Positions 3,571-53,107 of a stretch of DNA of 64,000 bases are shown here, piece after piece. Every line of letters begins with the position of its first letter. Position 1 is the first letter of the stretch. The stretch spans positions 78,618,001-78,682,000 of the forward strand of contig NC_086097.1 in the NCBI RefSeq assembly GCF_963921235.1, written 5' to 3'. Both the position numbers and the translations under genes were made by a program. Under the pieces are notes generated by a model. That model ran no database searches, had not been told where the DNA came from, and saw nothing but the letters and a program-made list of their open reading frames with translations. Source of the DNA: Mobula hypostoma (lineage: Eukaryota).

Positions 3571-5550
3571 TCTGACCAGCAGGGGATGTGGAACCAATGA
3601 AAGGACCATGAGACAGAGAGACAGAGAGAACACAACCGACAGGCAGTCATGAAGTAAAACCACACTTGGTGAAGTACAGTTCTTCCTTATCCACTTGCTT
3701 GAGCTTAACCAAATGAGGAGACCAGTGGTGCCATGCCATATAACAGCAATCAATCAATAATGCTGGGTTATAGCTCAAACATGACTTCTTAAAGACCTCC
3801 CATCGTTGACTATATTTTTTCTTTACGTTAATGTTTGGATAATAGTTTGTACAATATACAGTACAACTGTTTGTGCTTATTACAAAATAAGATCTGCATT
3901 TTTTTCTTAATATAATTGCCAGTTTTTCTGCTAAGCATCATTAAGTTAAATTGTTTAAAAGTTATTGCATTTTAGATCTCTGATGCACTTCCCTCTTTAA
4001 ATAAAATTAGAAAATTAACAATATTCCCGAATTCAGGCTGCATCAGTAGAAGGAGCCCATTAAATAGTTTGTGCAATACCCCAATTAGCAGCTTTCTCTG
4101 TCTGATGAAATACCCTTTAAACTATTCTATGACTGTTATTTTTATAACTAAATTTATATCCCAGTCTTCCATGCTTCATCCAGTGCTGAATGTGACTTTT
4201 TGGCTTAATGAGTGAGCTAATTACTACAAATTCTCTTGTTCTTTCCCTATAATCTTTCAGATATCTCCTGTTCAAATATTCAACCACTGGACTGCTGATA
4301 TGGCAGCAGAAGAGAAAGACCAAATGTGAAAGCAACAATTTGCTGTGGTGGTATAAACCTGCACTAAAGGAATGTTAGAGATGGAAATCTGAAGTCAAAG
4401 CTGGAAATATTCTTCTAAAAAGATTTGTATACAGAGATTCAACGAACTTGACCTCTTGGAAGAGTCATGTTTCCACATGCAGAGTCTGAAATGTCAGATA
4501 GAGGCAGACACTCACATTCTAAGATAAAAGACCTCTTGTCCACATGATCAAATTAACGCAAAAAGATCAAAAGTGGCCTCTGTATTAGCTTCTAATCCCT
4601 CCCCAACTGTTACTGGATCAAAATGGTTTGTTTGCTAGAAGTATAGAACTATCTAATCCTGAGATAACACTTAAATTTATCTTTATGTCAGCTATATGAT
4701 GCCAAGCATAGCAATCCAGGTACTACAACAAAGAGAGAGAAAAAAAATTATAAACCATAAAAAATATTCTTCCATCAATACCAGCTGGTGTACAACAAAA
4801 TATTCATATAGGAATATATTAAACTGTCTGGCCTGCTGTTGCGAGAATACCCTTCATTCCTTAAGATTTTAAACATCTGTCATGGTTGGAACATTGTGGT
4901 TAGATTCTGCAATTACTACTATGACTTGCTTTAGGGTCCAAGAATACATCCCATCCCATCTTCCTAGTGAACACTACTTTCAGTGCTTTCTTTCTGCCTA
5001 TCTTTAGTTTATCCATATTCTCCATTTCCCTTTATTTAAAGGTACAAAGTACCCATTCAGAAGTTGCAGCACAACATTCATTATGGCCCAACCTGGATGT
5101 TATCATTTAAACCTGTAACAGGAGTTGTGCTGCACTGTTTGAAAACCTAACTTTTTTGTCATGCAGAGATTGAAATCCATCTCTCAGCAGTTTGTCACAC
5201 ATCACTTTAGAATGATCATGATCTGAACATGAAACACCTCGCCTTGAGTTTAATTCTTTAGTTGATATAGTTGGCTAAAATTTTAATGAAGCCTGGAGCC
5301 AAGTGATCCTGCAAAACCCAACTTATGCTTCAGAAAGCAGGTTTTTAGTGAGTAAGAGCCAATAACACCATCATCAATACCCTCAAAAATTTTGTTGATG
5401 AACCTGTCTTGATTTTTATGACAATAACAAGTAAACATAATTACTTTGACAAGGTACCAGAAAACAGTACCTCTATAAAAACATAATACAACAAGCAATC
5501 AAGATTACTTTTGCCTTAGAGTGATGTAAATCTCTAAAAGCTGGTCTTAC

Positions 5551-5652
5551 TTCATGGTTTGGTATCTCAGCATCAACATTCTTCAATAGTTCTGCTAATC
5601 TTCTTTTCTCATCATCAGTCAACAGCACTGGGTTCTTAGCTTCTTTTGCTAA
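5551..5652 (-). CDS. FSIP1: FSIP1 coding exon 8 (gene continues leftward)
   Basis: attttcag|TTA...GAA|gtaaga; encodes LAKEAKNPVLLTDDEKRRLAELLKNVDAEIPNHE (recalled [27 protein letters not shown]); 102 nt, phase 0 to 0. Confidence 0.95.
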
Positions 5653-6625
5653 CTGAAAATATCAGTAAATAGCTATTATCAATAAAGGCTTGAAATAGAA
5701 AAAAATCATTATAAATAAGCCTGTTTTAAAAGTACACACAGAAGCACGTTAAATAAAAATTGATAGAAGTAATTAATGCACCATCAACAACAATTAGTCA
5801 AAGCCTGCAGCTAATAACATTGTGCACCTAACAATTCCACCTAGGAAGGATGTTGATATGTTTTGTAACGCCAAAAACTAAGCAAAAGAAAAACAAAGGA
5901 GCCAAGAGATGCGTATCTACCTTGTTTTACTTTAAACTAACCTATCCACCAAGCCACTTGTAGCTGGGTGGTACAGTGCAGATATAAATGCCTTATTCCA
6001 TTCATTTTCAGGAATGACTGAAATTGTTCCACAACAAACTGTGGTCCTTTCTCACTGACTAAATGTTCTGAAACAACAGTCCTTGAGAAGAGGCTTCTCA
6101 ATACATCAGCAGAATGTGAAGCTGTAGTGAAGGCCACTGGGAACATTCCTGCCCACTTTGTAGCTGCATCCACTACAGCCAAGAAATTTGTGCCCATGAA
6201 TAGTCCAGCAAAATCCACATGAATCCCCTGCCAGGCAAAACAGGCCATCCCCAGGGATGGAGAGGCGCTGCACTTGGTATCTTCCGGGCACGTTAGCATC
6301 CCAAACAGTACATGGAAATCCATTCAATCTGTTGATCTATCCCAGGATACCAAGCAAAGCTTCAAGCCAACTCTTTCATTTTGACAATGCCTAGATGACC
6401 AGCATGTAGATCCTCTAACACTATAGCTCTCAGCTTGGATGGTATAACAATTCTCAATCCCCACACAAGGCAACCTCTGTCTAGGCAAGCTCATCTCAGC
6501 ATTCGTAAAAATGAGGGAAAGGCAATTTCATCTGGACATTCCAGCCATTTTGTGTGGCCACGTAGACTTGAGACAGTGTGGGATCTTTTCTAGTTTCCCT
6601 TAGGATCATCTCTGCGCTGTAATAG

Positions 6626-7636: not shown

Positions 7637-10370
7637 GAGGCTTTCTATTTGCATTAGGGAGAATACATCAAGACGAGTATCCTCCTTGTAAATTTTTCAG
7701 TTATTTCTATTTCCAAGGCTAAAGAGGACAATCCATCAGCAGTTCCATGATTAGTCATCCTCTTGAATTTGATCTTGTAATTGTGTCCTCTAAGAAACAG
7801 AGCCCCTATTTGCATTTGTGCTGCTGCTGTTAGCAGAACATCTTTCTGCGGATTGAAAATGGACACTAGTGGCTGATGATCAGTAACAAGGGTAAACTCT
7901 CTCCCACAGAAGTACTGGTCGAAATGTTTTACACCCAAACCAGACTCAAGTCCTCTGTCAATCTGTGCATAATTTTTCTTTGCAACGATAAGGGAACATA
8001 ATGCAAAAGCTATGGGGCGTTCACTTCCATCACTCATAACAGGTGACATGACTACACCTATACCATAAGGTGAGGCATCATGGGCAAGCTTCACTGGATG
8101 CACAAGGATTACACAAGTATCAATGGTGTGACCACAGTAAGCGATGCTTGATTTAAAGAATTCATACTTGTTGCATCGTGCTCTGAGCCCATAATCTTCT
8201 AAACTTTTTAACACTGTCTTGAGATTTTGACGATATTCCTTGTCATCCTTATGGGTAATAATGATGTCTTCCAGGTAACACTGAGAGCTTGGGCAGCCTA
8301 GCAACACTTGGTCCATGGCTTTCTGCCAGAGTCCAGGTGCAGATGCTACTCCAAATACAAGCCTACTGTAGCGATAAAGCCATTTGTAAGTGTTAATGGT
8401 GAGAAATTGTCCATTTCCATCAGCCTCAGCTAAGTCCACTTTGCTCAAGTATTTTCCCCCAAAGAAGTTTGCAAAGATTTCCTCTATCTGGGCAGGGGGT
8501 ATTGATCTACTTTCAGTACTGGGTTGATAGTGACATTAAAATCATCACAAATCCTGACAGACCTGTCCTTATTGGCTGTTGTCCATGGGCTCCACTCAAC
8601 CTCGGAAAGCATTCCTTCCGGCTCCATGTAACTTAGTTCACTGGCTACTTTACCACGGATGGTATAAGGAACCAAACAGTTATTAAAAACTTGTGTGTGG
8701 CATTTTCATTTAAGACTATTTCACCCTTTACATGTTTGAGTTTTCCAGTGCCACCCTTGAACACTGCCATGGCTTCATCCAGAATCTTTCTTTATTCACT
8801 TTCTGTTGACTCTATTACAGAGGATGTGGCATGCAAATTGAGGATAGATCTGCAATCATGTTGTAGTTGTCTCAGCCAATCATGGCCCCACAATGCTTAC
8901 CACATAGAAGCCCAGTGTGGCTTTTTGGTTGTCGTATTTCACGGTTACAGGAGTTATCTTTTCTCCAGTATAAGTTCTTAGTTGGATATATGTAGCCTTC
9001 AGTTCAGTATCTTTGAAATGCCATTCAAAAGCATTTTGTGCAATGACTGAAACAGCCAAGCCAGTTTCCAATTCCATTTTAATTAATTTGCTGTTCATTT
9101 CTGGTAAGTCATATTACTTATCTCTTGCGAGTTTTCACATTATAAATTTCAAGGCTAGCAGTCCGATGTAACTCTCATCATTATCAGGTTTTTCCATCAA
9201 CAGCACGCAGATTAATGCTCCATTTGAAACTGCAACTTGACATTTTATCTTTCTCTCTTCCCAATGCAGCCCATTTATTTTTAACTGCCCAACCTGTTCT
9301 TTGTACAGTATGTATCCTACTTCGTTACAGCTTCTGCAAGTTTCACCTTTAATCCTGCATTGGGCTGGTGTATGTGAGCCCCTGTCAAAATGGTCACACA
9401 ATTTGTTCAGCCAGGCAGGTTTCTGTTCAGACCTTGCAATTTTATTCACGCTCACTTTCATTCCTGACTGCAACTCAATTGCATCTCCAGTTGTTGTTTC
9501 TATTGATACTCTGATTTTAACTGATCTTTTAAGTGTGAGTTGTGCTTCAGTTAGGAGTCATTCTTGAATGGTTTTTTGTAAGATTACACAAACTAAACGA
9601 TCTCTCTGTGCATCATTAACCCCATCACTGATCTGACGATACTCAATTTACTTTGTTCAGCCACAAAAGTTGAAATGAACTTTCCTTCCTTTTAAATCAG
9701 TTTTTGAAACCTAAAGAGTTCTGCAATCAATAATGTTCCTGCATTACTTTCATATTATCAGCTCATTTCAGCTGGTTTGGTTGGAGCAATCAAACTTATA
9801 AGCAAACTGTATGCTCTTCCACCAATTGCACTCAGCAAAATTGGCACTCATTTCTCGTCAGCTATTCCATTTGCTTTAAAATACTGCTCAATTCATTTTT
9901 GTATACATAATCCAGTTATCTGTTATGGAATAGAATGCATCTATCTTTCCAATGTAGCCAACTATTTCTGCTTTTTTAAGAATATTATCATCATTTGGTA
10001 CTCTGTTTATGAAACCATGAAATTCTTCTGTTTTCTGCCTTTTTTAAAAAATTGTACCTCTCTCTCTCTCCTCCCAAAGAAGAAAGCGTGTTGTACTTTT
10101 TTAAAACTCAAACTTCTTGCTACACTTCAACAGATAGGCAGTTGTCTTGGGTTCATTTTAAAACTTCCCCATCACCACTGTTATGCTTTTTAACTCCAAA
10201 AATTGATCAACAGAAAAACACAGGAGCCAGGAGATGCATGTCTACTTTGTTTTACTCCAGTGAGGCCTGCACATATGATGTGCTAGCATAATGACGTATG
10301 CCATTCACATATTTTTACATATAACCCATAATGAATTATGTAAATAACAAAAAAATCCTTAAACAATATA

Positions 10371-10930
10371 CAGTCGGCTCTCTGTATCCACAGGTTCCGT
10401 ATCCGCAGATTCAACCAATCGCGGATCGGGATCGGAAAAAAAACCGGAGGTTCTCTCTCCAGCACTCGTTTGAGCATTGTTCACCTCGCATCTCGTTCAT
10501 TTGTCACTTGTGTTGTGAGCGAGAGGAAGGAGTTTAAGGCTAGTAGGGGATGACTGGCTAGCTACGTAAAGCGCTACAGCCTCAAGAACTTAAAGATCAC
10601 GGGAGAATCGGCATCGGCTGATGCCGAGGCAGCATCAGCGTTCCCAGAAGAGCTACGATGGTCGCGTCTGTACTGAACATGTACAGACTTTTTTTTCTTG
10701 TCAATATTCCCTAAACAATACAGTATGACAACTATTTACATAGCATTTACATTGTAATAGGTAGTATAAGTAATCTAGAGATGATTTAAAGTATACGGAA
10801 GGATGTGTGTAGGTTATATGCAAACACTATGCCATTTTATATATGGGACTCGAGCATCTGTGGAAATTGGTATCCACGGTGGGGGGGGGGGTCCAAGAAC
10901 CAAACCCCAGTGGATACGGAGGGCCAACTG
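10371..10930. mobile_element. Tigger/pogo-type non-autonomous DNA transposon (Tigger3/MER2-like)
   Basis: TA on both sides; 21-bp TIRs CAGTCGGCTCTCTGTATCCAC / CAGTTGGCCCTCCGTATCCAC; the empty site is visible in the paralogous LTR near 25753. Confidence 0.92.
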
Positions 10931-11000
10931 TACTTACAATATTACTTAAATATTACTGAAATATTAAATACACAAGGAGTAGTGAAATGAACTTACATAC

Positions 11001-15065: not shown

Positions 15066-15460
15066 ATGGGGAAGGAGATAGATACAGAAGTATGTGGGCA
15101 CAACACACTGGTGAGAGTGCCCAACACCATGCTTTAAAGAAGCTTGCTGTAATTCAAACCTCATGTACTGACTTTGCAGATGCTTCCGACGATTTTTAAC
15201 AAAAGCTTAATGATCATATACCATTTTAAAGACACATCACTTCCACATCTAAGATAATAGAGAGTTGCTGATGGAGATGAGCAGCTTATTGACTCTTCAG
15301 TTTTCAATTACCTCAACAAAAGGAGGAAATCATAAGCCATATTAACTTCTCACCTACACCATACCGGCAGTTTAAAATACCAAAAATTCTTAGCTTCTAT
15401 AGTTAAATATATCTTTGTTGCAGAAAACCTTAGCCTGACTACTTGCAGCACCGACGCTGT

Positions 15461-15671
15461 TGAAGAAAGCCCTTAACTCCGAGTGGAGTCATCGGGACAC
15501 CGTCACGACAGCGTTTTTTTTAAGCAGGCTTTCCTATTTTTATGAGGCCGAGTTGCGAGCTCGACGTTTAACCCAGCACAGATGGAAAGTGTACAAGTGA
15601 GCCGGCTGGATTCGAACTCCGGAGCCTTTGCTCCGAAGTCCGGCGCTGATGCCACTACGCCACCAGCTGGC
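15461..15671 (-). mobile_element. Young tRNA-derived SINE
   Basis: A box TGGCGTAGTGG and B box GTTCGAATCC on the minus strand; CpG-rich; imperfect 13-bp TSD GCACCGACGCTGT / GTACTGACGCTAT. Confidence 0.85.
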
Positions 15672-16309
15672 GTACTGACGCTATAAGCTGATCTAAAAAA
15701 TCTGACAATCTCCATTGCACATGACAATACTATCTTGCATTAGACCGTTAAAATTTGTCACTTTAATCTCTAAAGTTTTAAATCTAAACGCTGATACCAA
15801 TAAGGAGTTTTATTAGAAATATAAAATGTTGAATTTCCGCTTGCCCAACTATTCTAATCCCTTTTTCTCTCTCATGCTTGAGTTAAATAAATAAATAAAT
15901 TCAATCAAAGGCAGACAAATCTAGCTAAAATGTGATTCCATGCCCTTTTGTTTAGGATTTAAGAACTAATCAAGCTACTTAATCTATTAAATTAAAGCAC
16001 AACTTCAGAGTTGTCACTTAACATACTACTCCTATGATTATTTTTACTTTTTACATTCATTGGAAGAAAAACATTAAAATTTTGGTAAGATAAATAGAAA
16101 GATTTTGGTAAGAAAATAGAAAGTGCATTTCCCACTATAATTAAAATAGCTCTAAATTTGCAATTGAAGCTAAAGCTAAAATCAAAATATTTCTTAAACA
16201 AAAAAAACGATGTCATTAAGTCTTCTGATGTCAATCCTAGGAAATATTTAATTTTATATAAAGTATTTTATTGAGTGAGTTGAAAGTTAGTTAGTGATTA
16301 GTAATACTC

Positions 16310-25502: not shown

Positions 25503-25791
25503 ATCCATGATGAATCGATCCAACTTGCTCTTAAGTGTTGAAATTGAACGGGCATCCCACATTTCAGCAGGCAACTTGTTCCACACTCTCACCACCCTCA
25601 GTGAAGAAGTTCCTCCTTATGCCCCCCTTAAACATTTCACCTTTCAGCCTTAACCCATCACCTCTACGTTTAGTCCCAGCCAAACACAGTGGAAAAAGTC
25701 TGCTTGCTGTACTACCTTTAATATTCCAGTAATATTTGAGTAATATTGTAAGTATATTGTTTGCTTACATAATTCATTATGGGTTTATATA

Positions 25792-26310
25792 CAGTACTGT
25801 GCAAAAATCCTGGGCACATATATAGAGCTAAGGTGCACAGTACTGTATTTGTAAACATGGAGCGGAGAGCGAGTTTGTAAATCTGGTGGGAGCCAAGGAT
25901 GTTGGAAATGCCGAGGGTGGAGTGCTGCAGGAGATGTGTGGACACGTGGCAGAGAATGAGTAACAAGGTGATGGGGTGGCATGGCTGCAGGCACACCCAG
26001 TCCTGAGACACGAAGCAAGGTCATTCGATTACAAACAATTGTTTTATTACAGAATGTCTCGGATGCTTCCTGCTCCCTTCCCTCTCCCTTCTCTTTTCAA
26101 AGCCATGATTCCCCTCACCCAGTTTCCTTCCTACTCTCAATCCACAGTCGAGACCCATATCAGACTCAGGGTTATCATCACTCACGTAGGTCAAGAATTT
26201 GAGGGTTTTTGCAACAGCAATACAGTGCATTACAAAAAATTACTACAGGACTGTTCAAAAGTCTTAGGCACCCTAGCTAGATATGTGCCTAAGACTTTTG
26301 CACAGTACTG
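25792..26310. mobile_element. Composite Tc1/mariner-type non-autonomous element
   Basis: TA TSD; 30-bp TIR CAGTACTGTGCAAAA(A/G)TC(C/T)T(G/A)GGCACATAT; second copy at about 61470-61973. Confidence 0.88.
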
Positions 26311-29163
26311 TAAATAGTATGTGAATAGCATATGACATTATGCCACCACTAGGAGAAAAACAAAGTACACAAGTATCTGGCTCCTGTGTTTTTTCTTTTG
26401 ATTATGCTCTGGAGTTACTAAAACATAACAACAGCAATGAAGAAGTTTCAAATGAACCCAACTACCAACTTGTTGAAGCATAGCATGTTGTTCTTTGGAA
26501 GTGAAGAGAGACGGTCAAGATTTTAAAAAGTCAGAGAATGGACAAAATTAACAAGCAATGAGTATGGCCATGGGTTCATAAGCAATGAGTAACAATAATA
26601 ATAAATTTTAAAAAGCAGGAACACCCGGCTACGTCAGAAAGACAGATGCATTCGATTGCACAACAGCTAGCTAGATAACATATACTGAAAGACTTTTGCG
26701 GTATCTTGAAACAAATGAAATAGCTGATGATAATCGAGTGCCAGTATTGCTGAGTACAATGAGTAGAAAAGCATGCAGTTTGTTATAAGTTTAACTGCTC
26801 CAACCAAAACAGCCAAAATAAGCTTTTCTGATATTGTGAACAAAATGAAAGAACATTTAGAACTGAAACCATTGTTCATTGCAGAGCGCTTTATGTTTCA
26901 TAAGCGGAATCAAAAGGAAGGGCGTCCATTTCAGCTTAAGTGGCTGAATTGACCAAGCATTGTCATTTTAATGATAGGTTTAATAATGCACTGAGAGATT
27001 GTTTAGTTGGTGGTATCTTACAAGAAAGTATTCAAAAATGGCTCCTAATTGAAGCACAACCCACATTTAAAAGAACAATTGAAATCAGAGTATCAATAGA
27101 AATCACAGACAGACATATAATTGAGTAGAAGTCAATTGAAGTGGAAGTGAGTGTGAGTAAAATTGCAACATCTAAACAGAAACCTGTCCTGTTGAACAAA
27201 TTGTGTTACTATTGTGGCAAGGGATCACATACACTAGACCAAAGCAGGTTTAAAGGCAAAAATTGCAGAAAATGCAATAAAGTAGGATACATACAAAGAG
27301 CATGTCAGACAGACAAAAATAATTAGACTGCACAGGGAAGGGAAAAAGATAAAAAGCCATATTTGCAGTTTCAAAAAGAGCACTAATCTGCATGCTATTG
27401 ATGAAAAATCTGATAATGCTCAAAGTGACACAGAACTAGGTAGCCTTGAGACTAACATAGTGAAAGCTAACAAGAGATAAGTAACATGGCTTATAACAGA
27501 AGTGAACAGCAAATTAAAATGAATTGGACGCTGGCTGGGCTGTTTCAGTAATTCCACAAAATGAGTTTGAACAGCATTTCAAAGATAATGAACTGAAGCC
27601 TGCAAATATCCAACCAAGAACTTATACTGTAGAAAAGATAACTCCAGCGGGAATGACATTCGTAACAATGAAATACATTGGGCTCGTATGTGGTAAAAAC
27701 AGAAGGGCCAGCATTGTGAGTCCGTGATTGGCTGAGACAACTACAACTTGATTGGAGATCCATCCACAATTTGCATGCCATATCCCCTGGAATAGAGTCA
27801 ATTGAAAACAAATTAAGAAACGTTCTGGATGATGCCACAGCAGTGTCCAAGGATGGCATTGCAAAACTCATACATATCAAGGGCAAAATAGTGTTAAATG
27901 ACAATGCCACTCCCAAGTTTAACAAAGCATGTCCAGTTCCTTAAACCATCCATGATAAAGTACTCAGTGAGCTAGATTGCATGGAGGCTGAAGGAATTCT
28001 TTCCAAGGTTGAGTGGAGTACATAGACAACACCAGAGGTCCCAGTAATTAAGAGGGATGGGTCTATCAGGATCTGTGGTGATTTTAAGGTCACCATAAAC
28101 CTAGTACTGAAAGTAAATTAATACCCTCATGGTAATGGAAGAAGAGTCCAAAGAGTTTCTCACCATTGACACTTACAAAGGGCTTTAGTGTTATAATTGG
28201 TGAACATTGGAGCAACATCTGCACCTGCACTCTGGCAGAAAGCTATGGACCAGGTGTTGCAATGCTACCAAAGCACTCAGTGTTATCTGGATGACATAAA
28301 TGTTACCCATGAGGATGACAAAGATCATCTCCAAAATCTCAAGACAGCATTAAAATGATTAGAAGATTATGTGCTCCGAGTATAACACAACAAGTGTGGA
28401 TTCTTTAAACCAAGCATCACTGATGCACATCATTGATGCACACGCATTACATAAACGTGCAAAGAAAGCTCAAAAAGTATTGAATGCCCCAAAGTGAAAG
28501 GATGTGTCACAGTTGGGATCCCTTTTTATAATTTGTCAATTACAATAATAGCTTCTTGCCAAACCTGGCTGCTCTGCTCCACCACTTGAACTCACTATAA
28601 ACGGGGAAGAAATGAGAATGTACAAAGCAGTATGAGCTGGCTTCCCAAAAGGGAAAGGAAATGGTGACATCAGATATCATATTCACACATTATGATCCAC
28701 ATCATCTAGTAAAGTTTGCCTGTGATGCTTCACCTTATGGTATCGATGCAGTCATATCTTTAGCTTTTACATCATGTTCCTTTACAGCTGCAGAGAAAAA
28801 TTATGCACAGAATGACAGACAGGCTTTGAGTCTGGTTTGGCTGTAAAATATTTCAACTAGTACTTGTAAGGGAGAGAGTTCACCCTCATTACTGATCATC
28901 AACCATTAATGTTCATTTTCAATCCATAGAAATGTGTTCCACGAAGGACACAATTACAAGGTTGAATTCAAGAGGACAATTAATCATGGAAATGCTGATG
29001 GATTGTCCCATTTAAAAGGAAATACTTGAAAAATTTACAAAAGAGGCAAATAGAGTCTCCCAATTGTGGCAGCTATGGTCCAAAGAAAAACCACAGAAGA
29101 CCCCATACTGTATCAGATCTACATGGCCACACAAAATGGCCAGAATGTGCAGCAGATACAGTT

Positions 29164-29744: not shown

Positions 29745-32156
29745 GTTCCCCCATTTTGACTAGTACTGGGATGAATTGCCTTCAACAGGGTTGCCTTATG
29801 TGGGGATTGAGAGTTGTTATACCATCCAACCTGAGAACTAGTGTTGGAGGAGCTGCATACTGGTTGTCTAGGCGTGGTTAAAATGAAGGCGCTGGTTGAA
29901 AGCTTTGTCTGGTGGTTTGCAATAGATCAGCAGTTCAAGCAGCTTGACATACACTGTCGGGATGCCAATGCTACCAGAAGATGCCAAGAGCAGAGCCTTT
30001 CCATCCCATTGAATGACCTGCATTGCCCTGGCAGAGGATTCATGTGGATTTTGCCATCATAGGCACAAATTTCTTAGTAGTAGTGGATACAGCTACGAAG
30101 TAGGCAGGAGTGTTTCCAATAGCCTCCATTACAGTTGCACACTGCTGATGTGTTGAGAAGCCTCTTCTCAAGGACTAGTGTTCCAGACACTTAGTCAGTG
30201 ACCATGGACCACAGTTTGGTACAGAACAGTTTCTGTCATTCAGGAGAATAAACAGGATAAGACACATTATATTTGCACTGTACAACCCAGTTACAAATGG
30301 CTTGACAGAAACGTTTGTCCAGGGTCTAAAGAACACAGTGCGTGTAATGTCGACAGAATACATGACACTGAATCAGAAGCATGCCAATTTCCTCTTTGCA
30401 TATTGCAATGTAACAGTCCATAACAAACATCTCACCGTCTATGCTGTTCCTTGGTTGTCCCTTGCGCTCACACTTGGATCTCCTCAAACCCAGTCTCAGA
30501 AGGAGTATGCAGGACAAACAGCGGATGCAAGTTGAGGGCTCCTCAAGCAAGGAGGTTTGATGTTTCACACCTGGACAAGCGATTCTGGTGAGGGACTACA
30601 GAGATGATTAAAAGTGGGTGGTTGGAAAGATTAAGGATAGAATGGGACCTCTCTCCTACACAGCAGAGATTGCACCTCAAGTCATCTGGAGATGATATCA
30701 CCAGTTGAGGAGAGCAGAGTCAACTGTTAGAGAAGGAACTTGTCAGAGCTGTCAGAACAGCTTTCTGCAGTCCCAGAGTCAACTCCTACAAACACCACTA
30801 AGGAAGCCCCAGAACCTGAGATTGTTTCACAGCTACAAATCTCATCTGCCAAGCAAAGAGACCCTCCACCCGTTGTCAGGAAAGACGTTATCCACAAGAA
30901 TAAGAAATCCTCCACAGAACTTCAATCTTTAGACCTGAATGGAACTATTTTAAATTTACTATGCTATGGATGTCTATTTAGGAGCTGTATTATATAGTAT
31001 ACATATTTGAGTTAAGAGTCAAGATGTATTCTATATTGTTGGAGTTTATAGCTAAGCAGGGAGGAGTGTAGTGTATTTAATATTTGATTAATATTGGAGA
31101 TATATTGTTTGATTCAGTATTCTTTGCTTGTTTATGCAATTCATATGGTTTTATGTAAGAAGTACATGAATGGCATATGTTATTATGCCACCATGTCATA
31201 GGTGAGTGTCTGACTAAATATAAAGGAGGAAAAAAACTCTGTAGACAAATATCCTGGCTCCTGTATTTTTCCTTTCAATTAGTTTCTGTAGTTACAAAAC
31301 TTGCCTTTACCCTCTCTATGCCCCTCACACTCTTCCACTCTGGGGAATGAAGTTCTCACCTATTTAACATTTCCCTTTAACTAAGGTTCTCAAGTCCTGG
31401 CAACGTCCTTGTAAATTTTCTCCACACAATAGATAGGTGACCTGAACTGCACACAATACTCCAAATCAGGCCTCACCAACATCTTATACAAGTTCAACCT
31501 TACATCCCAACTCCTGTACTCGTTACCTTGACTTATGAAGGCCAATGAGGCAAAAGTTTGCCTTATGACCTTATTTACCGATGACACCATTTTTAAGGAA
31601 CTATGGATCCATATACCCAGATCTCTCTGTTCTACCACACTCCACGGTGCCATACTGCTCACTGTGCAAGTCCTACCCTGGTTTGTCCTCCAAAAGTGCA
31701 ACACCCCACACTTGTTTTCGTTAAAATCCACCTGCCATTTTTCAGCTGATCCAAATCCCGCTGAAAGCTTTGATAACCTTCCTTGCTGTCCACTACATCA
31801 CCTGTCTTGGTGTCATCTGCAGAACTGCTGATTCAATTTACTACGTGATCATCCAGATCATTGATATACATTTATAGATCACAAACAACAACAGACACAG
31901 CACCAATCCCTATGGCACACTACTAGTCGCAGGCCTCCAGTTAGAGAGACAACTAACTACTACCACTCCTTAGATTCTCCCACAAAAAAAATGTCTAATC
32001 CAGTTTCCTACTTCATCCTGAATGCCAAGCAACTAAACCTTCTTGACGAATTTTTATTTCAGAATACGTGCAGTTAGGTTTTATAGCTTCAATTATTTTA
32101 ATAAATGTCATAGTATTTTGTATAATTAACCAGCCTACATATTTCTTCTGACTCAC

Positions 32157-35762: not shown

Positions 35763-35951
<189 letters not shown>

Positions 35952-48355: not shown

Positions 48356-48905
48356 CACTGAAAGTTAGCATGCAAGCACAACAAATAAAGGAAATCAAAT
48401 GACACTTGATTTTTACTACAAGAGTAACTCCATTTTACTGCAATCATCTGGATCCCTAGTGAGACTACATCTGGAATGCTGCAAGAAAAACACAGGTCAG
48501 GCAATATTTATAGAAAAAGAAACAGAACATTTCAGGAGTAAGACTCTTCATTAGAGCTGAGAAAGGGAGAAAACAAGTTAGTCTGGGTAGCAGAAAAGTA
48601 CTCAAAAAGGTTTTTCTGAATAATGTGGCAATTAAGAGGCAGTTAAGCTTCTTTTCTGTAGACAATATATTGCTAATATTGTAAAGTATGGCCAACTAGA
48701 ACAAGCCCAGCAAGCCAAAATATACAAATGAAAGAAAAAGGAAGAGAGAGATGCCAGCCCTGATACTCCCTTAGTCTACAGGAGTAATCCTGAGCCTACA
48801 GCTGCCCAATAATTTAATTCCACGTCCCACTTCCACACCTGCCCCTCTGTTTGTGGCCTCCTGAACTCATAACAAGGTCCAATATAAGTTAAGGGAAAGA
48901 CAACC

Positions 48906-50660
48906 CATCAGGAAGGTCTCAAAGCTCTACGCTTCTTTTTGGATTCCAGACCTAATCAGTTCCCCTCTACCACCACTCTGCTCCGTCTAGCAGAATTAGT
49001 CCTTACTCTTAACAATTTCTCCTTTTGCTCCTCCCATTTCCTCCAAACTAAAGGTGTAGCTATGGGCACCCATATGGGTCCTAGCTATGCCTGCCTTTTT
49101 GTTGGGTTTGTGGAACAATCTATGTTCCGTGCCTATTCTGGTATCTGTCCCCCACTTTTCCTTCGCTACATCGACGACTGCATTGGCGCTGCTTCCTGCA
49201 CGCATGCAGAACTCGTTGACTTTATTAACTTTGCCTCCAACTTTCACCCTGCCCTCAAGTTTACCTGGTCCATTTCTGACACCTCCCTCCCCTTTCTAGA
49301 TCTTTCTGTCTCTGTCTCTGGAGACAGCTTATCCACTGATGTCTACTATAAGCCTACTGACTCTCACAACTATCTGGACTATTCCTCTTCTCACCCTGTC
49401 TCTTGCAAAAACGCCATCCCCTTCTCGCAATTCCTCCGTCTCCGCCGCATCTGCTCTCAGGATGAGGCTTTTCATTCTAGGACGAGGGAGATGTCTTCAT
49501 TTTTTAAAGAAAGGGGCTTCCCTTCCTCCACTATCAACTCTGCTCTTAAACGCATCTCCCCCATTTCACGTACATCTGCTCTCACTCCATCCTCCCACCA
49601 CCCCACTAGGAATAGGGTTCCCCTGGTCCTCACCTACCACCCCACCAGCCTCCGGGTCCAACATATTATTCTCCGTAACTTCCGCCACCTCCAACGGGAT
49701 CCCACCACTAAGCATATCTTTCCCTCCCCGCCTCTCTCTGCATTCCGCAGGGATCACTCCCTACACAACTCCCTTGTCCATTCATCCCCCCCATCCCTCC
49801 CCACTGATCTCCCTCCTGGCACTTATCCGTGTAAGCGGAACAAGTGCTACACATGCCCTTACACTTCCTCCCTTACCACCATTCAGGGCCCCAAACAGTC
49901 CTTCCAGGTGAGGCATCACTTCGCCTGTGAGTCGACTGGGGTGATATACTGCGTCCGGTGCTCCCGATGTGGCCTTTTATATATTGGTGAGACCCGACGC
50001 AGACTGGGAGACCGCTTTGCTGAACATCTACGCTCTGTCCGCCAGAGAAAGCAGGATCTCCCAGTGGCCACATATTTTAATTCCACATCCCATTCCCATT
50101 CTGACATGTCTATCCACGGCCTCCTCTACTGTAAAGATGAAGCCACACTCAGGTTGGAGGAACAACACCTTATATTCCGTCTGGGTAGCCTCCAACCTGA
50201 TGGCATGAACATTGACTTCTCTAACTTCCGCTAGGCCCCACCTCCCCCTCGTACCCCATCTGTTACTCTTTTTAATGCACACATTCTTTCTCTCACTCTC
50301 CTTTTTCTCCCTCTGTCCCTCTGAATATACCTCTTGCCCATCCTCTGGGTCACCCCCCCCCCGTCTTTCTTCCCGGACCTCCTGTCCCATGATCCTCTCG
50401 TATCCCCTTCAGCCTATCACCTGTCCAGCTCTCGGCTCCATCCCTCCCCCTCCTGTCTTCTCCTATCATTTTGCATCTCCCCCTCCCTCTCCAGCTTTCA
50501 AATCCCTTACTCACTCTTCCTTCAGTTAGTCCTGACGAAGGGTCTCGGCCTGAAACGTCGACTGCGCCTCTTCCTATAGATGCTGCCTGGCCTGCTGCGT
50601 TCACCAGCAACTTTGATGTATGTTGCTTGAATTTCCAGCATCTGCAGAATTCCTGTTGTT
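48906..50660 (+). mobile_element. Young 5'-truncated Penelope-like element (RT + GIY-YIG) with terminal repeat
   Basis: Uninterrupted frame 48906-50234 with QTKGVAMGTHMGPSYA, FLRYIDD and VIYCVRCSRCGLLYIGET..R...RFAEH; pyrimidine-rich 3' repeat containing a hammerhead. Confidence 0.95.
50527..50564 (+). ncRNA. Minimal hammerhead ribozyme
   Basis: UAGUC-CUGACGA-AGGGUCUCGGCCU-GAAAC-GUC^GACUG: stem I UAGUC/GACUG, intact core, stem II hairpin, palindromic ACGU stem III. Confidence 0.85.
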
Positions 50661-52180: not shown

Positions 52181-52321
52181 CACTACCACCACGTTCCCAT
52201 TGGGAATCATTATTTATGACAATGGTTCCATTACTGTTTACAATTTCATTTTATTGAATTGCCTGAAATATTTGAGCACTGAGAGGAAATATAACTGATA
52301 TTCAAACCATACACATTTTAC

Positions 52322-52489
52322 CTGGGATAAATTTGGTTCTGGTGTTAAAACCACCATAGCTCCAGAGCAGTGTATATTCCGTCTTTGCTTGTCTGGTGAT
52401 GGACCACTTGCCACTCGGCTGCCAGGGCGTGTTCGAAAACCAGTTGCTGAACGTGTGACCTCATCAAACTGGCCTCTAACAATGTCCAT
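52322..52489 (-). CDS. FSIP1: FSIP1 coding exon 1 (ATG at 52489; exon starts at 52495)
   Basis: Encodes MDIVRGQFDEVTRSATGFRTRPGSR...VVLTPEPNLSQ, resembling the recalled FSIP1 N-terminus [25 protein letters not shown]. Acceptor tttag| lies 6 nt before the ATG; donor CAG|gtaaaa; 168 nt, ends phase 0. Confidence 0.93.
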
Positions 52490-53107
52490 TATAACCTAAA
52501 ATAATCCAATGTTTTAAATAAGTGCACATGATGATGTCAGGGAATCACAATGTGCATCAACATACAACACCAGAATGAATAAATGACAATTTACCAATGT
52601 TTTAGACCTGGTGTAAAGCACATTTAATTTTCAATATTTTAACAATATCCAACAATTACCAGCAGAACAGAACTGCCAGTAGTTGTCACACAAACAAACA
52701 AATACAATACTGGAATATCAACACAAACTAGATTTTTCACACTACAATATCTGCGCAAGCATGTTACAGAAAGGGAAAGTAAACTTCATTTTTAGACTTT
52801 TTAATTCAGGAAATAGAGATCCACAGGAGAAGTATGTGTTAAGAGCTAAGGTAATACAGCCCATACACTAGAAACTCTTGCACTCCTGCTCCGAAAATAA
52901 TAGACCATGTCGTGTAAGGTTCAGCTAGATTTTCCATATACAGAAACAAACTACAACAAATTCAGAGTGGAGCACATTATTAATTAATTATTAATAATTA
53001 ATTAATTATTGTTCTTGCAAGAGGAGATATACTTACAGCCAATTTATGTCTGGAAATATAGCTCTGATCTTCTGTTTCAACCAAGGTACTTTTATAGTGT
53101 TTTTTAA

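Follow-up and report, generated by a model that had tools for sequence, protein, structure and literature searches.

How did a short DNA transposon in the genome of the ray Mobula hypostoma come to have non-coding ends that resemble those of a repeat family that is likely mammalian? The element lies in a 64,000-nucleotide stretch of contig NC_086097.1 (positions 78,618,001 to 78,682,000, assembly GCF_963921235.1), which is the window in what follows. A preliminary description had proposed that it is a MITE closely resembling mammalian Tigger3/MER2 and a candidate for horizontal transfer.

The element occupies 10371-10930 and was confirmed from the sequence to be 560 bp long and flanked by a TA duplication, with one TA at 10369-10370 and the other at 10931-10932. 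Its 21-bp terminal inverted repeats, at 10371-10391 on the plus strand and 10910-10930 on the minus strand, paired at 18 of 21 bases, and two of the three mismatches were CpG-type transitions. In a chance control, a score of at least 18/21 was reached by 4 of the 151,106 TA-bounded pairs with 300-800 bp spacing in the 64-kb window, and of these four, one was the element itself and three were registers of a single other insertion. The TA target-site duplication and the short inverted repeats (21 bp, with an upper limit of 40 bp, and starting with CAG) are features of pogo/Tigger transposons, and family ranges for Tigger inverted repeats are given in the available portions of PMC9219625 and PMC7386202. 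One copy of the element was present in the window. It contained no functional ORF, as the term MITE implies, but a transposase remnant with a stop persists in it, so that it is described more precisely as an internal-deletion derivative, here of a DNA transposon of the Tigger (pogo) type.

The observed/expected CpG ratio was 0.88 in the element versus 0.24 in the window. This value was reached by 5 of 454 sliding windows, two of which overlapped the element. That many CpGs are retained holds for the element overall but not for its 3' part, which contains 4 of the 26, the other 22 being located inside 10371-10670. A further CpG-rich stretch, with ratios of up to 0.99, was observed at ~15100-16100. 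The fold z-score of the element was -3.95; this is explained by the inverted ends together with internal palindromes, and RNA function is not claimed.

The insertion is hosted by the 5' LTR (10180-10975, minus strand, ends approximate) of a decayed Gypsy-order retrotransposon. The LTR matched other LTRs at ~5850-5930, 25720-26430 and 31070-31300, and Pfam located the coding domains of the retrotransposon on the minus strand, with RT/RNase H at 7654-8532 and integrase at 5937-6320. Both LTRs of a second Gypsy copy (~25.7-31.3 kb) were without the insertion at the matching site. By sequence comparison, the paralogous 5' LTR (25717-26433, plus strand) had a single TA at 25754-25753, with 176 of 200 aligned bases identical, and the 3' LTR (31071-31298, plus strand) was empty as well. 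The earlier claim of an insertion into a Gypsy LTR with an empty paralog was thereby upheld, and the LTR near 31.1 kb adds a second empty one. FSIP1 exons (Pfam PF15554) flank the element at 5476-5661, 35763-35951 and 52241-52495, which places it within an intron of this minus-strand gene (5476-52495). Both Gypsy copies are intronic in FSIP1, in mutually opposite orientations. The paralogous LTR has an insertion of its own, an unrelated TA-flanked 519-bp sequence at 25792-26310 with inverted ends of ~25 bp, located ~35 bp from the site of the first element; the AT-rich LTRs received two independent insertions. Elsewhere in the window, a 448-codon open frame at 48888-50231 on the plus strand gave a weak GIY-YIG match (E 3e-4) and likely belongs to a Penelope-type element.

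The preliminary description had missed that part of the element is coding in origin. Positions 10518-10655 on the plus strand encode 46 residues of a Tigger transposase, comprising the end of the CENP-B-type helix-turn-helix and the linker, with one stop at 10551. The tblastn alignment and the codon list assigned them to residues 131-176 of the parent. Over 47 residues in tblastn, the remnant was 87% identical to P0002, 89% to P0008 and 83% to the Mobula protein P0014. Two of the 46 codons were unlike all three references, from which it follows that the copy is little decayed. The preceding stretch, 10446-10517 on the plus strand, matched neither intact transposase nor any of the 150 ORFs described below and is likely the untranslated leader of the parent transposon.

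P0002 (607 aa) and P0008 (611 aa) are intact, with CENP-B_N, HTH_Tnp_Tc5 and DDE_1 domains, and their catalytic aspartates (194, 308 and 341) have DD32D spacing. DD32D is given for the Tigger sheet in the available portion of a supplement table (PMC7386202). Gene models with GTF2I repeats open with a P0008-type N-terminus that is 90% identical over 177 residues. In P0006 and P0014 (XP_062887396.1 and XP_072099312.1; two assemblies, P0006 from Mobula) the first ~190 residues were transposase DNA-binding domains, and this fusion is possibly a transposase capture or an annotation artefact.

Among the 120 of 788 P0002 matches listed, the closest named full-length relative was a skink protein (73%), no mammalian protein exceeded 63% identity and no Trichinella protein was named. 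A maximum-likelihood tree was built from 37 of 41 chosen rows; the two Mobula fusions, Emys and the window piece were left out as short. The tree grouped ray-type, skink and whipworm sequences, with P0002/P0008 as sister to the skink protein and two others (support 94/86) and the whipworm proteins joining next (92/89). From the node common with the skink group, the branch to P0008 measured 0.07 changes per site, and this short branch also hints at transfer. The transposases of elephant, dugong and opossum, 59-63% identical to P0002, were placed in the sister clade of the P0002/P0008 group and were for that reason dropped as the mammalian partner. No mammalian member was present in the P0002/P0008 clade of the 37-row tree, so that the common ends are what connects this enzyme with the mammalian copies. 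The skink protein and its two relatives (P0028-P0030), which are sister to the ray-type transposase at 73%, are without the catalytic aspartates of P0008 and look domesticated; a short deletion in them coincides in position with one in Mobula P0006. A search of the ESM Atlas returned generic Tigger clusters only for P0002 and chordate clusters for the flank of P0240. A metagenome scan returned 77 loci with 29-72% protein identity, none of which had the DNA or the ends of the element.

Spurious ORFs are called over repeats, and the non-coding 3' block (10656-10930, plus strand) was therefore translated, with X at stops, and searched with phmmer against 1.84 billion proteins. The search returned 415 ORFs at E<=0.001. 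The best 150 of the 415 were used for the ORF analyses, a set whose identity values are inflated, as its members were chosen by their similarity to the window. Individual matches in this set averaged 61% residue identity to the window. The majority residue of the best 150 of 415 was the window residue at 60 of 71 columns over 10655-10876 and at 31 of 38 columns over 10820-10933. An agreement of 60/71 requires 13 or more substitutions over 213 bases; ~11 are left when it is considered that one difference is a CpG codon that the window retained and that another is one change, not two. According to a simulation, 85% residue identity corresponds to ~7% DNA divergence and 79% to ~10%. The bootstrap range of the majority agreement was 0.76-0.93, the weaker 75 matches alone agreed at 57/68 columns, and the best-covered 49 columns agreed at 39/49, corresponding to ~9-10% DNA divergence. 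On the best-covered columns, 36 of the 150 copies were at least as near the majority as the window is.

Taken from one translated frame, in which silent changes are missed, the DNA identity of the ends to the majority of the repeat family is estimated at ~90-93%. Part of the 7-10% gap is the element's own decay. The two stops in the window frame were located at columns without a dominant residue, and three differing columns showed CpG-decay pairs. An identity that is nearly base for base, as had been stated in the preliminary description, is thus replaced by an estimate of ~93%. The threshold of about 85% that had been named there in support of transfer is exceeded by this estimate (60/71 columns, ~93% DNA), measured against the majority of unnamed copies.

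The likeness had been confined to 10670-10930. The 3' block does match, but the 5' 75 bp (10371-10445, plus strand) match as well, with 27 frame-level matches in the 150 ORFs (9, 11 and 7 per frame) and none in shuffles. No match to the middle of the element was found in the 150 ORFs (0/150). Since mammalian proteins among the listed matches of P0002 also stayed at or below 63% identity, this transposase and the mammalian copies are linked only indirectly. The reverse frame of the 3' part matched 3 ORFs only, and frames B and C gave 12 and 9 matches, which were mis-framed and too few for use. P0150, P0152, P0175, P0200 and P0231 had ~20 additional codons upstream of the common 3' block, and at least 34 matching ORFs bore a different upstream block, which indicates several deletion variants in the other family.

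The flanks of the ORFs bear on whose copies these are. The repeat in P0291 continues into LINE-1 ORF2p (E 5.5e-13 against solved structures), and the flanks of twelve further ORFs we take to be Alu, ruminant Bov-A/BovB, pig SINE or mammalian L1. Identity of the 13 copies with mammal-type flanks was 66% to the window and 61% among themselves, all having been selected for window likeness; the diagnostic columns at which the whole set departs from the window also set these 13 apart from it. Pfam returned nothing on all 150 ORFs, a PDB search with P0187 was without match, a paper search with four flank peptides found none, and the flanks of the 150 ORFs did not match other repeats of the 64-kb window. 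The 5' end of the element also resembled the Rfam consensus of mir-9080, at 37 of 45 bases counted by eye. This match is weak: a search over 701 bases gave E 2.3, and E 0.001 appeared only after the query had been narrowed to 106 bases; the 25-bit score is far short of the family cut-off, 100. In the available text of PMC6826835, mir-9080 is a horse microRNA. Rfam returned nothing at gathering score for the window and nothing for the 3' tail; a Tetrahymena snoRNA match (E 1.7) was rejected as chance. Based on one tool-checked flank, the weak Rfam match and the twelve flanks taken to be mammalian, the matching repeat family is likely mammalian.

We take this family to be MER2/MER2B and the ends of the element to be MER2-type. 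The 5' and 3' blocks of MER2/MER2B are presumably the same as those of the element, and the 150 ORFs look like decayed copies of it. In contrast to MER2/MER2B, the 560-bp element has ~210 bp more middle, including the 46 transposase codons, and its CpGs are kept. The inverted ends of Golem/Tigger3 presumably differ from those of the element. Of the Tigger3/MER2 identity proposed earlier, the likeness of the ends to an old repeat family stands, presumably MER2-type, while 'Tigger3' is probably a wrong label, given these ends and a separate listing of the two in Repbase. That listing, in the portion of PMC5753468 available, sets MER2/MER2B apart from Golem/Tigger3 and also separates MER2 from those human Mariner families in which coding sequence persists.

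MER2/MER2B, human non-autonomous elements of the Mariner/Tc1 class (names as in the available text of PMC5753468), likewise have a TA duplication and short inverted ends. Golem/Tigger3, a separate family from MER2 in Repbase, likewise has a Tigger-type DD-D transposase with CENP-B-type domains and internal-deletion derivatives (available text of PMC3268980 and PMC5753468), and Golem is printed among Trichinella sequences in a published tree, judged by text order only (PMC7325037, in part). A Tigger transfer between Eutheria and two sharks has been claimed (Diaby et al., 2022, PMC9219625, available portion), in the same family and with the same kind of claim as here. The five chondrichthyan elements of that study have other inverted ends, and its shark-mammal distances are 0.65-0.70 versus ~0.07-0.10 here. 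MER6 and its turtle parent Mariner-2_CPB are likewise a mammalian non-autonomous element and an autonomous parent that mammals lack and another vertebrate has, but they belong to a different family, and their authors prefer vertical inheritance of a captured SINE domain (PMC6887750, available portion). The inverted end of the element had no row in the supplement table of PMC7386202, within the first 400 characters of its cells. A supplement search for PMC9004415, PMC2836564 and PMC3606631 came back empty, and PMC11195612 gave no occurrence. In the openly accessible papers, neither a ray element of the MER2 type nor a transposase for MER2 turned up.

Searches of plasmid and phage DNA returned no copy of the element. 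Three patterns gave 0, 1 and 0 matches in viral contigs, where none of 22 transposase candidates was positive, and a GTDB DNA search gave 1 match; the single viral-contig and GTDB matches were 19-base chance matches and not copies. Window motifs retrieved no copy from paper text and four supplements, and a four-motif full-text search returned 0 papers. In read data from eight coded organisms and skin metagenomes, 21 of the 23 runs listed carried 13-49% of the element's sampled words. The FSIP1 intron was compared in four runs, from organisms A, B, C and G of the eight; the skin metagenomes and organisms D, E and F had small shares of the words, and neither they nor organism H entered the comparison. 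It was identical to the window in A, had 26 changes in ~2,150 bases in B and was ~94-96% identical in C and G. From this likeness, the top word carriers among the runs compared are the host species and close kin.

In pogo/Tigger transposons, a transposase bound to the inverted ends cuts the element out and integrates it at TA, and deleted copies are mobile in trans (available text of PMC3268980). Two deletions would have joined the 5' end of a full-length parent, 46 codons and its 3' end. The inverted ends would then have been bound by an intact P0002/P0008-type DD32D transposase, which would have excised the copy in trans and reinserted it at TA, and the same transposase lineage may also have mobilised the copies of mammals. 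This lineage would likely have reached rays and mammals separately via a third host, without passing from one to the other, and the copy at 10371-10930 would now be dead and without host function.

With ends estimated to be ~93% identical to a likely mammalian family, we consider it quite probable that both lineages acquired the family by horizontal transfer; the route was probably through a third host. The mark of transfer is a divergence far below that expected from the host split, and the estimate here is 7-10% in non-coding DNA, the mammalian origin of the compared copies being in part presumed. The transfer between fish and mammals put forward in the preliminary description is carried by the high non-coding identity and qualified by that partly presumed origin. 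Contamination of the assembly is unlikely, as had been argued; the TA duplication, the two empty paralogous LTRs and the occurrence of the FSIP1 intron (~94-100% identity) in four word-carrying runs speak against it. That mammalian DNA was assembled into the contig could be read from the best runs carrying only 46-49% of the element's sampled words, but the middle of the element is a transposase piece that is absent from the 150 ORFs and common with Mobula gene models, and the CpGs are kept, which makes this explanation extremely improbable. The matching copies could also be a real family that is wholly or partly non-mammalian (reptile, other fish or invertebrate) and has no special tie to MER2. 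In that case the element would be either a transferred or an ordinary Tigger derivative. This would agree with the skink protein as nearest named full-length transposase relative among the matches listed (73%) and with 12 of the 13 mammal-type flank labels being presumptive. We regard it as unlikely, since it has to account for the LINE-1 ORF2p flank of P0291, the match to a horse microRNA family (mir-9080) and the deviation of the 13 flank-typed copies at the diagnostic columns of the whole set.

The resemblance might instead be vertical, from a family that was active in the jawed-vertebrate ancestor and changed little in both lineages. Squamates, turtles and coelacanth have related transposases, and ancient transposon fossils can render patchy families vertical, although the conserved fossils described are single exapted loci (PMC9004415, available portion). 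Against this reading, MER2 has been dated near the divergence of the mammalian orders (PMC1914374). An intron of the same host gene is already ~6% changed among close kin. Cartilaginous fish and mammals split >400 million years ago, and an estimated non-coding divergence of 7-10% would need exceptional conservation in active copies, so that we judge vertical descent very unlikely. Passage of the family straight from one ancestor to the other, ray to mammal or mammal to ray, without a third host, would suit the high end-to-end identity, and the two waves could be similar in age; the transposase clade, however, includes squamate and whipworm sequences and no ecological route is shown, and we see less chance still in this route.

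The element is likely a case of horizontal transfer of a known kind, and we hold this with good confidence; what sets it apart is that its non-coding identity is unusually high and that there is a candidate for the parent transposase. For a more specific proposal the balance appears even: rays would keep the nearly intact, missing autonomous parent of MER2/MER2B, its lineage would have entered early placentals, rays and squamates separately, P0002/P0008 would have spread MER2, and in Mobula the DNA-binding half would have been captured before a GTF2I-repeat gene. Mammals or birds were involved in 24 of at least 975 transfer events in a survey of 307 genomes (PMC7070016). Transfers involving mammals are rare, and the present case is estimated at 0.07-0.10 in non-coding DNA. 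The copy joins what we take to be MER2-type ends to a still-intact transposase, and the source and the enzyme of a common mammalian repeat are therefore directly testable. Tigger transfer among vertebrates was known; a link between a ray and mammals with a candidate transposase for these repeats did not appear in the openly accessible papers.
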